Made by a program: the position numbers and the translations under genes. This document shows, piece after piece, positions 33,452-48,460 of a stretch of DNA of 64,000 nucleotides. Under the pieces are notes generated by a model. The model saw nothing but the letters and a program-made list of their open reading frames with translations. It did no database searches and was not told where the DNA came from. The stretch covers positions 171,767 to 235,766 of the forward strand of contig JADJXN010000014.1 in NCBI GenBank assembly GCA_016715815.1, in the 5' to 3' direction. Origin of the DNA: Oligoflexia bacterium (GTDB lineage: Bacteria; Bdellovibrionota; Bdellovibrionia; JABDDW01). Positions within the stretch are counted from its first letter, which is position 1; each line of letters starts with the position of its first letter.

Positions 33452-33749
33452 CCCATCCCTCTAAACTTTAGTTTTCAGGCCAAAAAGTTAAAAACTTTAT
33501 GACTTTTGTTGAGTTTTAAAGTTAGCAAGGCAAGACCAGTACAAGCTCTATGCCAAATGAGGTGGGCTTTATCTTGAGTTGAGGGCAAAAGATTATCTGA
33601 ATAGTAAAAATTTCAAGAATTTTTACAAATCCTGAAAATGCTAATTTCTCAAATAATTAAAGGTAAATAATGCTTGGCACAATTATTCTGAGCTCTTGAC
33701 TAGTTAAACCATAAAACGTTAACTTATTGTTAAGGAGAGGTCGACTAAC

Positions 33750-34037
33750 ATGAGGGTCTTTGACGTAACAATTGCGGGTATTCCGCTCAAACTAAAGTCT
33801 GAAAAAGATCCAGAATTGGTTAAAAAGCTTATAGCTTATGTCGATAAAAAAGTATTAGAAGCACTGCCAGCCACAAAAAGTGGGTCGCTACAAAATGCAG
33901 CGTTACTTGCAACATTGAACATGGCAGAGGAACTTTTCGAGCTAAAAGGAAAAGCTCTGACACAGCTTGAAAAGTTTGAAAAAAAGACCATTCGTCTTAT
34001 AGACGAGCTAGAGTCTTCAAGAGCGGGTAAAGCTTAA
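33750..34037 (+). CDS. zapA: cell division protein ZapA
   Basis: Small coiled-coil protein; N-terminus VTIAGIPLKLKSEKDPE typical of ZapA. Confidence 0.7.
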   Translation: MRVFDVTIAGIPLKLKSEKDPELVKKLIAYVDKKVLEALPATKSGSLQNAALLATLNMAEELFELKGKALTQLEKFEKKTIRLIDELESSRAGKA

Positions 34038-34039
34038 TA

Positions 34040-34207
34040 AAAAGCGCCGCCGTTTAAATTTGGTATTGAGATTAAATGATTTTGGTAAACATAAAGACTT
34101 CATTTTCTCGTTTTTAGGCATCGCCTAAAAATCTTTTATTTCCTACCAAGTTTTATTTTTGTCGGAGCCTAAATTTTATGCTTTCAAAAAATGTATGGCG
34201 CTCCAAG
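34040..34207 (+). ncRNA. candidate 6S RNA (ssrS) position between zapA and 5-FCL gene; speculative
   Basis: Conserved zapA-ssrS-ygfA synteny; 5' agcgcc can pair with 3' ggcgct; internal hairpin tttaggc/gcctaaa; no covariance model run. Confidence 0.2.
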
Positions 34208-34759
34208 ATGCTTGAGACGCGCTCACAATTAGGGCCTGACAAGGCAGCCGAATTTAACCGGCAAATATGCAAAAACCTTCTTTTTGTTTTTGCAGAAGCA
34301 GGTGTGTCTAAAACCCGCCAAACCTGGGCAAGTTATAAAAGCTTTAAATGGGAAGCAGATCCAAACCTTGCAGTTTTAGAAACCTTTGAAATTATAGATT
34401 GGGCTTTTCCACGCTTAAATGAATGCGACTTATTAGATTTTTATATACCTCAAAAATCTGATGCGTTGTGGGTGAAAAACAAATGGGGAATATGGGAGCC
34501 AGACCCCCGAACTTCAAAAAAAATTGAAATAAAAAATTTTAACGGAATTTTAGTGCCAGGCCTTGCTTTTGACAAACAAGGCAGAAGGCTTGGTTACGGT
34601 AAAGGTTACTACGACAAAGCCTTAAGCGGCTTTAAGGGGCTTAAGGTGGGGATTAGCTATTCCCTGCAAGTAGCAGGAGAAAGTCTCCCCAATGAAACAA
34701 ATGATGTTTTGATGGACTTAGTTGTTACAGAAAGTGAAACCATCAAAACCAAACATTAA
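34178..34759 (+). CDS. 5-formyltetrahydrofolate cyclo-ligase (start may be the internal Met near 34208)
   Basis: Signature GYGKGYYD and PGLAFD. Confidence 0.85.
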   Translation: MLSKNVWRSKMLETRSQLGPDKAAEFNRQICKNLLFVFAEAGVSKTRQTWASYKSFKWEADPNLAVLETFEIIDWAFPRLNECDLLDFYIPQKSDALWVKNKWGIWEPDPRTSKKIEIKNFNGILVPGLAFDKQGRRLGYGKGYYDKALSGFKGLKVGISYSLQVAGESLPNETNDVLMDLVVTESETIKTKH

Positions 34760-34774
34760 ATGTGAGGAGAGTGA

Positions 34775-36292
34775 ATGGATATTTTAAGTTTAATACTACT
34801 AGCTGCAGGAGTTCTTGCAGGATGCGGTGTTGGTTTTGGAATTAAAAAATACCTAGACGCCAAAAAACTAAAAGCAGCTGATGAAGTTGCAAGGCAAACC
34901 ATTGCAAAAGCAAAAGAGCAAGCCAATGTAATAGACATGCAAGCAAAAAGGCGAGCCCAGCAAATTGAACAAAATGCTCAAAGCCAAATGGATAGAGAAA
35001 ACAGACGAAGAGAAAATGAGGCCCGCGAGCTAGAGCGAAGATTAAAAGACAAGGAAAGTCAGTTTGAACAAAAAATTCAAAACCTAGATCATAAAGAAAA
35101 GCGTGTGAAAGAGCATGAGGAAAAGCTTCACTTAACAGAAAAGCAGCTTCAGGAAAAATTAGAGCACATTTCTTCTCTCACCCGTGAAGAAGCTAAAAAA
35201 ACATTGATTGATTCTTTGGAGGGTGAGGCAAAACTTGATGCTGCTAAAAACATAAAAATCATTGAAGAAGAAGCAAAACAAGAGGCGGAAAAAAGATCTA
35301 AAAAAATTATTGCTCTTGCCATTGCTCGTTATGCTGGAGAGTACAGCTCTGAGAGAACAGTTTCAGTGATTCAACTTCCTAATGAAGAAATGAAGGGGCG
35401 CCTCATAGGACGTGAGGGAAGAAACATTAGAGCTCTTGAAGCAGTGACTGGTATGGATTTAATTATTGATGATACCCCTGAAGCCGTTATTATTTCAGGT
35501 TTTGACCCTGTAAGGCGTGAGATTGCAAAAATGACCATTGAAGGTCTTATGCAAGACGGGCGTGTGCACCCATCAAGAATTGAAGAGCTGGCTGAAAAAT
35601 CAAAACAAATGCTTTTTAAAACAATTAAAGATGATGGTGAAAAGGCAATGTTTGATTTAGGAGTGCATGGAGTTCATCCGGAACTTGTGAGACTTATTGG
35701 CTCTTTAAAATATAGAACAAGTTATACACAAAGTAACTACGCTCACTCAATAGAAGTTGGCTTTTTGGCTGGCATGATGGCTGCTGAATTAGGTCAAAAC
35801 GTAAAAGCAGCACGTCGAGCCGGAGTTTTACATGATTTAGGTAAAGCCCTTGATCATAACATTGAGGGAAGCCATGCCGTTATTGGGGCCGAGTATGCTA
35901 AAAAGTACGGAGAGCCTGCAGATATTGTTCATGCCATTCGAGCGCACCATGAGGATGAAAAACCAAATTCAATATTAGCTCATTTAGTGCAAGCCTCAGA
36001 TGCACTCTCAGGTGCAAGACCGGGTGCAAGGCGAGAAGTAATGCAAACCTATGTGAACCGCCTTGAGGATTTAGAAACCATTGGAAATAGTTTTGATGGT
36101 GTTATTAGAACTTTTGCTATTCAAGCAGGCCGTGAAATTAGAGTTGTGGTTGATAGCGAAAAGGTTACTGATGAGCAAAGCATAATGCTTAGCCGTGATA
36201 TTGCTCGTAAAATTGAAAAAGAAATGACTTACCCTGGGCAAATTAAAGTTACTGTTTTAAGAGAAACCCGTGCTGTGGAGCACGCTCGCTGA
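34775..36292 (+). CDS. rny: ribonuclease Y
   Basis: N-terminal TM anchor, coiled coil, KH domain ([15 protein letters not shown]), HD domain (HSIEV...GVLHDLGK). Confidence 0.9.
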
Positions 36293-36355
36293 GGTACGCC
36301 GTTCCTTTTTGCATATGCAAAAAGGAACGGACTACCCAAAAAGGAACGGCGTACC
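36293..36355 (+). promoter_or_regulatory. structured repeat element between rny and tyrS: anti-SD-like arm plus two copies of an SD-like repeat (alternative hairpins)
   Basis: ggtacgccgttccttttt ... gcaaaaaggaacgg ... aaaaaggaacggcgtacc; perfect 32-nt palindrome 36299-36330 and 18-bp long-range complement 36293-36310/36338-36355. Confidence 0.45.
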
Positions 36356-36356
36356 T

Positions 36357-37562
36357 ATGATGGCAGCTGAAGAACAATTAAGGCAGTTAAAAAAAGGAAT
36401 CGTTGATCTGGTTTCTGAAAAAGAGCTTTTAGAAAAGCTTACAAAATCAGTTAAAACGGGTAGGCCTTTAAGAATTAAAGCGGGTTTTGACCCTTCAGCC
36501 CCAGATTTGCACTTAGGCCATGCTGTTTTAATAAATAAAATGCGCCAGTTTCAACTCTTAGGCCATGAAGTTATTTTCTTAATTGGGGATATTACCGGTA
36601 TGGTAGGGGATCCTTCAGGAAAAAATGAAACCAGAAAGCCATTAACCAAAGAAGAAGTAAAAGAAAATGGTAAAACCTATGCCCGACAAATTTTTAAATT
36701 ACTAGACCCTAAAAAAACTATTGTTGAGTATAATTCCACATGGTTTGAAAAATTTAACGTTTTTGATTTATTTAAACTTGCCGGCCAATACACTGTGGCA
36801 CGTATGCTTGAGCGAGATGATTTTAGTAAACGCTATAAAAGTAATAACCCTATAAGTATTCATGAGTTTTTATACCCGCTACTTCAAGGTTATGACAGTG
36901 TTGCTTTAAAGTCTGATGTGGAACTTGGCGGAAATGACCAGCGCTTTAATTTGCTTGTTGGAAGAGATATGCAAAAATCTTACGGCCAAGAGCCGCAAGT
37001 GATTATGACAGTGCCATTATTAGAAGGTCTTGATGGCGTTAATAAAATGTCTAAGAGTTTAAATAACTACATTGGCATTGAAGAGCCAGCGCGTGAAATT
37101 TTTGGTAAAACCATGCGTTTAAGCGATGAGCTTATGATGAAGTATTATGAGCTTTTAACAGATTTTACCCCTGATGAGTTAACTGATTTAAAAAATAAAA
37201 TGTCAAATGGTGCTCTTAACCCCCGAGATGTAAAAGTAAGTTTGGCTAAAATTTTTGTTGAAAGATTTCATAGTAAAGCTGCTGCTGAAGATGCTGCGAA
37301 AGAATTTTTTGAAGTGTTTTCAAATAAAGGTATGCCCTCTGAAATTCCTGAATGGAAAACCTCAGCCATTGATAATTTATGGATATGTAAACTGATGGTT
37401 GAAGCAGGGCTTGCGCCTTCAACAAGTGAGGCGCGCCGCCTGATTGATGGTGGAGCAGTGGAAAAAGATGGGGAAAAGATTAAGGACAATAAGTTTTCTT
37501 TAAATTTAAAATCAGGTGAAAATTTTGTTTTAAAAGCCGGTAAAAGAAATTTGCAAAAATAA
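36357..37562 (+). CDS. tyrS: tyrosyl-tRNA synthetase (start placed at MMAAEEQ; ORF track extends to 36270)
   Basis: Class I HIGH variant [14 protein letters not shown] motif, C-terminal S4-like domain. Confidence 0.9.
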
Positions 37563-37582: not shown

Positions 37583-37960
37583 GTGAAAGTTAAATTTATA
37601 CCTCAAAACATTGAATGTGAAATCGCACCTGGTGAGAGTGTTCTTGATGTTGCAAGAAAAAATAATGTCTTTATAAAATCAGTTTGTGGTGGGGTGCCAA
37701 GCTGTTCTGAGTGTAGGGTTAAAGTTGTAGGTGGTGGGCATAATATTTTACCCCCTAATTTTAAAGAAAAATCCCTTATTGGCTCCGCCTATTTTATTGA
37801 TCAGTCTCGCCTTAGTTGCCAAATAAAATGCATGGGAGATGTGACTGTGGATTTGACAGAGCAAATTGAAAAAGAAAAACTTTTAGGCGAGAGCGGCAAA
37901 AAGCTAGCTTTTAGATCCACTGTAAATCCTGACCCGGATTTAGATTTTAAAAAGAAATAA
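37583..37960 (+). CDS. 2Fe-2S ferredoxin-like protein (GTG start)
   Basis: Cys pattern CGGVPSCSEC ... RLSCQ. Confidence 0.7.
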   Translation: MKVKFIPQNIECEIAPGESVLDVARKNNVFIKSVCGGVPSCSECRVKVVGGGHNILPPNFKEKSLIGSAYFIDQSRLSCQIKCMGDVTVDLTEQIEKEKLLGESGKKLAFRSTVNPDPDLDFKKK

Positions 37961-46847: not shown

Positions 46848-48460
46848 ACATAAACCCAAAAGCCCTTCATGACGGTGTTTCTCTCTAAGGGGAACTCAAA
46901 ATCAAGTGGAGGGTGGGTTTTTTCAATACGAATATAGCTTAGGCCGGCATCAAGAGCGGCCTTTTCTATTTTTAAAGCTACATCAGAGCTTTCAAGGCCC
47001 TCATCATTAAAAGTAAGTAATAACCTGCCTTCTTGTTCTAAGCATAAAAAGGCATTTTTTAATAATTCTTCAATTTGCTCACTTAATTTAAAAGTGCCAT
47101 GCTTTCCTCTGGAAAATGTGGGGGGATCAATAATAATTAAATCAAATTTTCTTTTTCTGCGTACACAAGCTTGTAGGAAAAACAAACTATCAGCGGTGAA
47201 GAATTCATATTTGTCAGGGTCTAAATCATTAAGCTTAAAATTATTTTTACCCCACTCTAAAGAGCTTTGTGAGGTATCAACACTGACAACTTCAGCTGCA
47301 CCACCAAGGGCTGCACATAAGCTAAACCCGCAGGTGTAGCTAAAAAAATTGGCTACTTTTTTCCCATGTGTTGATTGCAGAATTTCTAGTCTGTGATCTC
47401 TTTGATCTAAAAATAAACCAGCACTCATGCCTTGGGCGTGGCGCATATCAAAATTTATGTCATTTTCTTTTATTTGCCACTGTAGTGGCATATTAGTTGA
47501 TGCTTGAATATTTATTTTAGTTTCTTCATTTAGGTTTTTTATATTTCCTCTTTCTTGCATTTGCCTAATAAACCAATATTTGGTGTTTGAAACGTTCATA
47601 AAAAAATCAATCAAACTTTCAGATAGGCTTTCATTGGTTTGGGAATAATTCATGATTTGTAAAACATCACCAAGTTTTTCAATGCAGAGTTTATTTTTCT
47701 CAAACCATTCACGATGCATAAGCCTATAGGAATTAGTTTTTTCAAAAAATAAAAAACGGCGGCGATCTAAGCTTATTAAAAACTGCATGGCAAGTGTGCG
47801 ATCTGCTTTATGAAGATTTAAAAATTTTTTTTCTAATTCTTGATCCATTAAAAATGCTTGCGGCAAGGGGGAATTAATTTTTGTTTTATCTATTTGAAGT
47901 TCATAAGAGTGTAACATAAGCCTTGGGTACGCAGCTCCCCCGTGAAGTGGATCACCTAAAATGGGAATGCCAGAAGCCTCAGCGTGAATTCTGATTTGAT
48001 GGGTTTTGCCGGAGTGAATTTCAGCCTCATATATAAAACCTAAAGAATTTTTGCCTATTTTAGCAAATGTGGTGTGGCTATTATTTTCCCCTTTAACTAA
48101 GCCAAATTTATGATTACCTGTTTTTTCTATGCGGCCTTCATAGGACCAAAGGTTTTGCTTAAATTCATTCTCAGAGATTAAAACATATTTCTTAACACTC
48201 TCTTTGAGCTTATTACTCCAAGGCTCAACCCCCTCAGCATTTGTGGTGCAAAGAAGACACCCTGATGTGGTGTTATCAAGCCTGTGTACGGCCCAAAGCT
48301 TTTCACCCAAAAGCTTTTCACAAACCTCTGTAAAGCCAAGCGTTGCACCACTGTCAGGCGTATGGGTAGACATGCCTGCAGGCTTGTCTAAAATAATGGC
48401 AGATTCGAAGCTGCGTAGAATCATATTTATTTTCTCTGTAATATTAGAAAGATACTGCAC
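46844..48460 (-). CDS. fusion protein: RluA-family pseudouridine synthase (N) + RlmI-like class I SAM methyltransferase (C)
   Basis: N-terminal HRLDNTTSGCLL (PUS catalytic Asp motif); C-terminal GLFLDQRDHR, SYTCGFS, IIIDPPTF. Confidence 0.75.
   Translation of the reverse strand: MQYLSNITEKINMILRSFESAIILDKPAGMSTHTPDSGATLGFTEVCEKLLGEKLWAVHRLDNTTSGCLLCTTNAEGVEPWSNKLKESVKKYVLISENEFKQNLWSYEGRIEKTGNHKFGLVKGENNSHTTFAKIGKNSLGFIYEAEIHSGKTHQIRIHAEASGIPILGDPLHGGAAYPRLMLHSYELQIDKTKINSPLPQAFLMDQELEKKFLNLHKADRTLAMQFLISLDRRRFLFFEKTNSYRLMHREWFEKNKLCIEKLGDVLQIMNYSQTNESLSESLIDFFMNVSNTKYWFIRQMQERGNIKNLNEETKINIQASTNMPLQWQIKENDINFDMRHAQGMSAGLFLDQRDHRLEILQSTHGKKVANFFSYTCGFSLCAALGGAAEVVSVDTSQSSLEWGKNNFKLNDLDPDKYEFFTADSLFFLQACVRRKRKFDLIIIDPPTFSRGKHGTFKLSEQIEELLKNAFLCLEQEGRLLLTFNDEGLESSDVALKIEKAALDAGLSYIRIEKTHPPLDFEFPLERNTVMKGFWVYV

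Follow-up and report, generated by a model that had tools for sequence, protein, structure and literature searches.

A duplicated ribosome-binding region and its inverted copy form a predicted two-state RNA between rny and tyrS in an Oligoflexia bacterium

The genes encoding RNase Y (rny) and tyrosyl-tRNA synthetase (tyrS) lie next to each other in a 64,000-nt stretch of DNA (the window) from an Oligoflexia bacterium, and the short spacer between them contains an inverted arm followed by two direct copies of the tyrS ribosome-binding region. The arm can pair with either copy but not with both, and the two pairings are predicted to be almost equal in energy, one of them hiding the tyrS start site and the other leaving it free. 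Our favoured reading is that the element is a lineage-specific two-state RNA at a junction that is otherwise tightly translationally coupled. We tentatively propose that it works as a soft translational-coupling device of the 'RNA unfolding' type, with ribosomes that terminate on rny resetting it. No evidence points to regulated switching or to sensing, and as the evidence stands the element does not amount to a new class of aminoacyl-tRNA synthetase regulation.

Results

An inverted arm and a tandem duplication occupy the rny-tyrS spacer

The spacer between the rny TGA and the tyrS ATG is 64 nt long (36293-36356, GGTACGCCGTTCCTTTTTGCATATGCAAAAAGGAACGGACTACCCAAAAAGGAACGGCGTACCT). An earlier reading of the DNA letters alone (the sequence-only reading) had placed a structured repeat element correctly between these two codons, in a spacer counted one nucleotide short at 63 nt. 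A repeat search resolved the element into arm A, which is directed against the ribosome-binding site (RBS), and copies 1 and 2 of the ribosome-binding region (Table 1). Arm A is complementary to copy 2 at all 20 of 20 positions, with 25 nt between the arms, and the resulting helix spans the final A of the rny TGA through the T immediately before the tyrS ATG. This helix had been described as 18 bp long, in an element ending 2 nt before the tyrS start; the helix exists, but it measures 20 bp and ends 0 nt before the ATG.

Arm A is also complementary to copy 1, at 20 of 22 positions. The segments 36293-36314 and 36315-36336 form 22-nt arms that are 91% complementary, with zero spacer, and they enclose a perfect 32-nt palindrome, as had been claimed. 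What had been called two direct copies is a tandem duplication, with 19-nt units arranged head to tail (36318-36336 and 36337-36355, 89% identical) and differing solely at one dinucleotide, which is AC in copy 1 (36331-32), where it mismatches arm A, and CG in copy 2 (36350-51). Copy 2 carries a Shine-Dalgarno (SD) sequence, AAGGAA, located 10 nt from the ATG at 36357; no other SD-like motif lies close enough to the start to be usable, in agreement with the sequence-only reading. The motif AAAAAGGAACGG occurs three times in the window (twice on the + strand and once on the - strand), always within the element, which is the strongest short-range inverted repeat of the entire 64 kb.

Two further repeats were observed. 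Inside rny, 36216-36234 (AAAAAGAAATGACTTACCC) is 74% identical to both 19-nt units and 78% complementary to arm A; it may be a chance resemblance, the source of the repeat or an extra pairing partner. A 17-nt palindrome with overlapping arms (TAGACATGCCTGCAGGCTTGTCTA, 94% complementary) lies at 48367-48390.

The start of tyrS at ATG 36357 was supported by homologues, since the encoded MMAAEEQL is in register with the homologue N-termini MLSAEEQL, MLPASEQL and MLAADEQL. The NCBI/GenBank protein (P0001, 400 aa) begins one codon later, at ATG 36360, and is 100% identical from there. The sole ATG within the spacer (36315-36317) sits at the 3' end of the hairpin loop (GCATATGC). It shares the tyrS reading frame, no stop codon intervenes, and its use would lengthen the protein by 14 residues. 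It was rejected as the tyrS start, being unsupported by homologue N-termini and having no upstream SD. In a crude survey of 46 long open reading frames (ORFs), an SD-like motif was found upstream of ~40% of first ATGs, indicating that the organism does use SD sequences.

Table 1. Coordinates of the spacer element and flanking genes in the window, and rny-tyrS spacers and genes between tyrS and the ferredoxin gene at orthologous loci
Feature	Position	Strand	Details
ZapA-like ORF	33750-34037	+	part of operon-like row
5-formyltetrahydrofolate cyclo-ligase (5-FTHF cyclo-ligase) gene	34178-34759	+	part of operon-like row
rny (RNase Y) coding sequence	34775-36292	+	505-aa ORF; TIGR03319 RNase_Y, 658.8 bits, E 4.9e-198; stop TGA 36290-36292
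Arm A (anti-RBS arm), AGGTACGCCGTTCCTTTTTG	36292-36311	+	first base is the last base of the rny stop codon
Perfect 32-nt palindrome, CCGTTCCTTTTTGCATATGCAAAAAGGAACGG	36299-36330	+	local hairpin core; 14-bp stem, loop AUAU 36313-36316
Copy 1 (decoy), CAAAAAGGAACGGACTACC	36318-36336	+	SD-like AAGGAA 36322-36327, 29 nt before ATG
Copy 2 (real ribosome-binding region), CAAAAAGGAACGGCGTACCT	36337-36356	+	SD AAGGAA 36341-36346; adjoins tyrS ATG
tyrS (tyrosyl-tRNA synthetase) coding sequence	36357-37562	+	TIGR00234 tyrS, 394 bits; start ATG 36357-36359, second ATG 36360
2Fe-2S ferredoxin gene	37583-37960	+	part of operon-like row
Gene between tyrS and ferredoxin gene, L088	3744-4676
Gene between tyrS and ferredoxin gene, L089	2293-3207
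Gene between tyrS and ferredoxin gene, L091	2452-3390
Short rny-tyrS spacers, L083, L084, L088, L089, L090			6, 15, 5, 19 and 9 nt, respectively
Short rny-tyrS spacers, L091, L092, L093, L094, L001			-1, 2, -4, 18 and ~12-18 nt, respectively
Short rny-tyrS spacers, L002-L008			~-11 to +13 nt, read from sequences by eye

Two exclusive pairings of comparable energy are predicted

The segment 36280-36375 folds at -39.4 kcal/mol compared to -21.5 +/- 3.5 kcal/mol for shuffled sequences (z = -5.1), and none of 200 shuffles was as good. With the repeat search, this confirms that the inverted arm and its two SD-bearing direct copies are a real element. Energies of single conformers were calculated with RNA parameters at 37 C. 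The local hairpin, in which arm A pairs with copy 1 and the start site is free, was predicted at -28.3 kcal/mol, and the long helix, in which arm A pairs with copy 2 and the SD is hidden, at -33.0 kcal/mol. A hybrid in which arm A uses copy 2 for its outer 9-10 bp and copy 1 for its inner 11-12 bp was predicted at -30.8 kcal/mol and resembles the minimum free energy fold. When ensemble classes were averaged over twelve 3' ends or contexts, the open class differed from the closed-or-hybrid classes by a mean of 0.10 kcal/mol (range -3 to +3), and the three classes together made up ~99% of the ensemble. The earlier claim of mutually exclusive pairings is borne out, and this mean difference makes them energetically comparable. 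The element thus shares with sequestrator/anti-sequestrator switches a set of exclusive, comparable pairings of which one hides the SD. Arm A was paired in essentially all ensemble structures (probability of being unpaired 0.001-0.01). The 3' part of copy 2 (36347-36355) was paired in ~96% of the ensemble, and the SD was unpaired in ~34%.

The contribution of each segment was modelled as the cost of opening the region from the SD to the AUG. Opening the native sequence cost 5.8 kcal/mol, and scrambling of arm A changed this to 6.9 +/- 1.8 kcal/mol. The sequence-only reading had seen the architecture of a translational switch or attenuator here; that architecture is present, but these two costs do not show equilibrium sequestration, and a sensor was not found either (see below). 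Deletion of copy 1 raised the opening cost to 29.3 kcal/mol and scrambling it to 24.6 +/- 1.7 kcal/mol. Since loss of copy 1 imposes a cost of ~29 kcal/mol, copy 1 would be a decoy that nearly cancels a lock on an essential gene; in silico, it is indispensable and is required for an accessible tyrS start. When copy 1 was made identical to copy 2, the cost fell to 3.3 kcal/mol. In the model, the lone AC/CG dinucleotide difference is what shifts the balance from always open to balanced.

The order of folding was also modelled. During 5'-to-3' synthesis the open hairpin was predicted to form first, at -21.8 kcal/mol once 36330 has been made. To become the hybrid, the open hairpin would have to cross an estimated barrier of 10.8 kcal/mol, and the further step to the fully closed helix one of 4.4 kcal/mol. 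The closed helix extends nearer to the rny stop (36292) than does the perfect part of the open hairpin (36299).

The nearest relative has a similar layout with a different sequence

The TyrS relatives compared were Oligoflexia and Bdellovibrionales metagenome-assembled genomes (MAGs). Adjacency of rny and tyrS was kept in every locus looked at; the two genes are on the same strand, and their order was kept in 18 loci. The sequence-only reading had called for the same element to be sought in related genomes and had named its absence beforehand as the outcome that would count against it. At the level of sequence this is what was found: none of the 16 other orthologous junctions contains the element. 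The spacers of these 16 junctions range from -11 to ~+19 nt, suggesting that tight stop-start proximity, and with it coupling, is ancestral. Pairing between the rny end and the tyrS start was not significant in the short-spacer orthologues (37-293 of 500 shuffles as good).

A second long spacer, of 59 nt, was found only in the nearest relative (L081/L082; TyrS 90% and RNase Y 93% identical), in which the same sequence was obtained in two sequencing runs. This spacer cannot be aligned with that of the window (score 14 versus 11.2 +/- 4.1 for shuffles). Four-fold degenerate sites of rny and tyrS are saturated between the two genomes (32-37% identity), so a neutral ancestral structure should have been erased. 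In L081, the segment 2445-2459 (stop+4 to +18) has two alternative partners, a local arm with GAAGG (2464-2472, 9 bp) and the tyrS SD and AUG (2489-2505, 15 bp with two bulges). The duplex between the stop-proximal segment and the RBS was predicted at -18.4 kcal/mol compared to -8.9 +/- 2.2 kcal/mol for dinucleotide shuffles (0/1000 and 1/1000 as good), and 45% of RBS bases paired with the stop-proximal 25 nt compared to 9% in shuffles (8/400 as high). The two classes differed by a mean of 0.63 kcal/mol and made up 97-99% of the ensemble. As in the window, the closed helix reaches nearer to the stop than the open hairpin. In these models, L081 repeats the layout of the window (stop-adjacent arm, SD-like local arm, SD and AUG) with a different sequence, and the two states are near-isoenergetic in both genomes.

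A terminating ribosome covers roughly 5-10 nt beyond the stop codon. In both the window and L081, the tyrS SD/AUG can pair with sequence that would lie under a ribosome terminating on rny, as in coupling by RNA unfolding. A 4-codon mini-ORF (AUG AGG ACG AAC UGA) was also observed at L081 2487-2503, ending in a UGAUG that overlaps the tyrS start; it is probably a chance occurrence because it has no SD of its own.

The element lies inside a conserved gene row and matches no known RNA family

In relatives the conserved gene order is zapA, 5-FTHF cyclo-ligase, rny, tyrS and ferredoxin. A promoter scan found no promoter-like site within the rny-tyrS spacer or directly before it, and an internal tyrS promoter was rejected on this basis. 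A terminator scan of the + strand found no site in 36293-36356 and did find a canonical terminator at 34110-34132. The element itself was rejected as an intrinsic terminator: the stem is present, but there is no U-tract, the local hairpin being followed by CAAAAAGG and the long helix by AUGAUGGC. We infer that rny and tyrS are co-transcribed.

A search against Rfam returned no gathering-score match in the whole window and none at E<=10 in 33700-36500, which rules out a T-box as well as known thermometers and leaders; the earlier exclusion of a T-box holds even at this permissive threshold. No sensor domain was detected, whether an aptamer, a stalling leader peptide or a tRNA-binding stem (no Rfam match at E<=10 and no leader ORF with an SD). 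With regard to mimicry of tRNA-Tyr, the element has no 7-nt loop showing GUA; the only tRNA in the window is a tRNA-Arg. A dispersed palindromic repeat (repetitive extragenic palindrome (REP), bacterial interspersed mosaic element (BIME) or miniature inverted-repeat transposable element (MITE)) was rejected, because the motif is confined to the element within 64 kb. A blastn search of plasmids and phages gave nothing relevant, only a 28-nt chance match (E 0.6), and a metagenome scan with the stem pattern CCGTTCCTTTTT-N(2-12)-AAAAAGGAACGG gave three unrelated terminator-like hairpins after stop codons.

Other features of the gene row

Several relatives have an additional gene between tyrS and the ferredoxin gene, either one of the S1/P1-nuclease family or an unannotated one of ~310 aa; in the window and L081, tyrS and the ferredoxin gene are direct neighbours. 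Upstream, a 140-nt gap (34038-34177) separates the ZapA-like ORF from the 5-FTHF cyclo-ligase gene, which is the position of ssrS (6S RNA) in E. coli. The gap folds with a closing stem, AAATTTGGTA...TACCAAGTTT, and a terminator-like hairpin at 34110-34132 with a T-run. It is retained in relatives at 124-267 nt, and blocks such as TTTGGTATTGA.ATTAAATG and TTTTTAGGC.TCGCCTA are common to the window and L081 despite the saturated neutral sites. The gap gave no Rfam match, 6S included, at E<=10, and a five-sequence alignment was uninformative. It may encode an undescribed small RNA.

Discussion

The interpretation offered by the sequence-only reading is partly supported. In the mechanism that we tentatively propose for a soft coupling of tyrS to rny, the two genes would share one transcript. 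The helix of arm A with copy 2 would clamp the 9-20 nt preceding the tyrS AUG and bring the stop and start codons to the base of one helix, and pairing of arm A with copy 1 would instead free the tyrS start site. A ribosome at the rny UGA would hold the outer part of arm A, which pairs perfectly only with copy 2. Once the arm is freed after termination, the nearby decoy would capture it first, giving the local hairpin with the tyrS start open, and the RNA would then relax within seconds to a mixture of about 50:50. The placing of stop and start at the base of one stem would mimic their ancestral proximity, so that the element may substitute for the direct stop-start closeness of the relatives, and the decoy would keep a 20-bp perfect helix from locking an essential tyrS. 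The element itself would have originated by tandem slippage together with a templated inverted copy of the tyrS ribosome-binding region.

Coupling by RNA unfolding has been described over +52 nt in E. coli rpmI-rplT and over +62 nt in an f1 gene VII/IX construct (PMC12548453). Like those systems and MS2 coat-lysis (PMC12548453), the junction studied here has co-oriented neighbours in one operon (here inferred) and a downstream start that pairs with sequence occupied by the ribosome finishing the upstream ORF, and a spacing of 50-60 nt is compatible with unfolding without occlusion of the downstream start. It differs from them in that the masking arm lies just past the stop codon rather than inside the upstream ORF, that a tandem copy of the start region competes so that the masked state is not dominant, and that the predicted equilibrium repression is near zero.

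A number of results weigh against this proposal. Equilibrium modelling did not reveal strong thermodynamic sequestration, the start being hidden no more than in controls or random sequence, and it did not reveal release by a ribosome parked on the rny stop, which shifted the opening cost by <1 kcal/mol. Averaged over contexts, the opening cost in the window was 6.5 kcal/mol for free RNA, 6.2-6.6 with a parked ribosome and 5.5 without the arm; the corresponding values in L081 were 4.1, 4.5-4.7 and 2.9 kcal/mol. Because the equilibrium costs are nearly unchanged, coupling would have to be kinetic, and its dynamic range would be small, roughly 2- to 4-fold. In the window, a fraction of 0.21 of the RBS bases paired with the stop-proximal segment compared to 0.10 +/- 0.13 in shuffles (66/400 as high), a difference that is not significant because the decoy competes efficiently. 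The dominant conformer also changes with the choice of 3' context. Structure immediately 3' of a stop codon is reported to correlate negatively with coupling efficiency (PMC12548453). Perfect 20/20 pairing is also expected of a very recent mutation, and a long spacer of this kind was found in two genomes only, both uncultured.

The main rival explanation, which we regard as somewhat unlikely, is that the element is a neutral mutational product. On this account a 19-nt slippage duplication of the RBS and a snap-back or template-switch inverted copy arose without function, and the product survives only because the decoy cancels an otherwise lethal lock. The exact sequence comes from a single MAG contig (P0001: 1 member, 1 contig) and is absent from all relatives. 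The 20/20 arm, the zero-spacer palindrome and the head-to-tail 19-nt duplication are signatures of template switching and slippage. Template switching is documented to create and perfect hairpins in a single event (PMC8794818; PMC7202029; PMC3820800). Like the template-switch quasi-palindromes of PMC8794818 and PMC7202029, the element has close, perfect reverse-complement arms and a zero-spacer palindrome, and fits one or two mutational events; those papers concern mutational origin rather than function, whereas the present product includes a compensating tandem copy and extends over the start site of an essential gene. The net equilibrium effect on start accessibility is about zero, as expected if harmless variants alone survive, and templated homogenisation of the arms could maintain complementarity without selection. 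What argues against neutrality is L081, which keeps a 59-nt spacer with a balanced three-part layout in an unalignable sequence despite saturated neutral sites. The other relatives keep at most ~19 nt, so a useless 60 nt would be expected to be lost. A more elaborate and distinctly unlikely possibility joins origin and function. In this scenario the coupling device would have assembled itself from duplications of the tyrS start after stop-start proximity was lost, a ribosome melting the outer arm would free the SD/AUG at its own mRNA entry site and reinitiate across the hairpin in a shunt-like manner, the decoy would set the reset kinetics, and the layout would have been selected in two species across saturated neutral divergence.

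The stem could also be an mRNA processing or stability element. It might stabilise the rny part of the message as a 3'-exonuclease barrier, or it might direct cleavage by RNase III or RNase Y, so that rny and tyrS end up on separate mRNAs in a defined ratio. We consider this quite improbable. A helix of 20-22 bp has the length of an RNase III substrate, the stem is very stable (-28 to -33 kcal/mol) and begins 0-7 nt past the rny stop, and the 9-bp GC-rich hairpin of L081 begins 11 nt past its rny stop. RNase Y, moreover, prefers single-stranded AU-rich sites beside secondary structure (PMC10303841). Processing nevertheless leaves unexplained both the second RBS copy and the complementarity of the arm to the tyrS SD/AUG in two genomes, and the L081 helices (9 bp, and 15 bp with two bulges) would be poor RNase III substrates. 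Autoregulation by RNase Y was rejected as a precedent, the known autoregulatory cleavages in B. subtilis being in the 5' untranslated region and early ORF and not downstream of rny (PMC10303841).

A sensing switch or attenuator, in which TyrRS, tRNA-Tyr, a small RNA or temperature biases the conformers to regulate tyrS, is very unlikely. The states are balanced within ~1 kcal/mol in two genomes, where a weak input could flip the fold, and E. coli thrS provides an example of aminoacyl-tRNA synthetase autoregulation through an operator beside the SD. Against such a role, no Rfam family was matched at E<=10, T-box and thermometer families included, there is no leader ORF with its own SD, neither an aptamer nor a T-box Stem I would fit into 64 nt, conservation is limited to the pairing itself, and folding at 15 C gave the same picture as at 37 C, with no qualitative change. 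It is more improbable still that we are dealing with a small mobile or dispersed palindrome of the REP or MITE kind, or with an artefact of assembly or amplification. The 20-bp perfect terminal inverted repeats around a 25-nt core, 65 nt in all, and the origin of the sequence in a MAG would fit such an explanation. The element is, however, present in a single copy in 64 kb, has no plasmid or phage match and no target-site duplication, and the metagenome scan retrieved unrelated hairpins only. A graph artefact is unlikely, as usual assembly k-mers are longer than these repeats (13-20 nt) and synteny holds on both sides.

Returning to the proposed coupling device, several known RNAs share parts of its layout. 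Three-segment sequestrator/anti-sequestrator platforms are found in ermC-type translational attenuation and in the expression platforms of translational riboswitches. There, as here, one segment pairs with either of two others and one pairing hides the SD; the element differs in that the SD-containing segment is duplicated rather than the anti-SD, and it has no leader peptide, stalling site or aptamer, so that its input would be an ordinary terminating ribosome. T-box leaders (RF00230) lie upstream of tyrS in Firmicutes and are about 200-300 nt long. They too are structured RNAs upstream of tyrS with alternative pairings. In contrast, the element has 64 nt, no covariance-model match, no Stem I or specifier loop and no terminator, and it is placed within an operon rather than in a 5' leader. 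Finally, as in ribosome standby (PMC5934652), one AAGGAA copy is single-stranded beside a stable helix in either conformer, and by analogy a 30S subunit could wait at that copy. Known standby sites are unstructured tails, whereas here the SD is duplicated.

Start-site masking and translational coupling are already known; what sets this case apart is the duplicated-SD decoy. A neutral element would still illustrate survivorship clearly, because in the model tyrS is locked at ~29 kcal/mol when the inverted copy has no tandem copy to compensate for it, and the compensated form is then the only one that could be observed. A functional element would be a compact natural example of how a start site can give rise, within one or two mutational steps, to a structure that masks it, with the inverted copy serving as the mask and the tandem copy as a built-in competitor that keeps an essential gene translatable. 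Such a duplicated-SD decoy is a design principle that can be tested and reused in synthetic operons. In this lineage, it would mean that coupling between rny and tyrS could persist after their junction grows from at most ~19 nt to ~60 nt.

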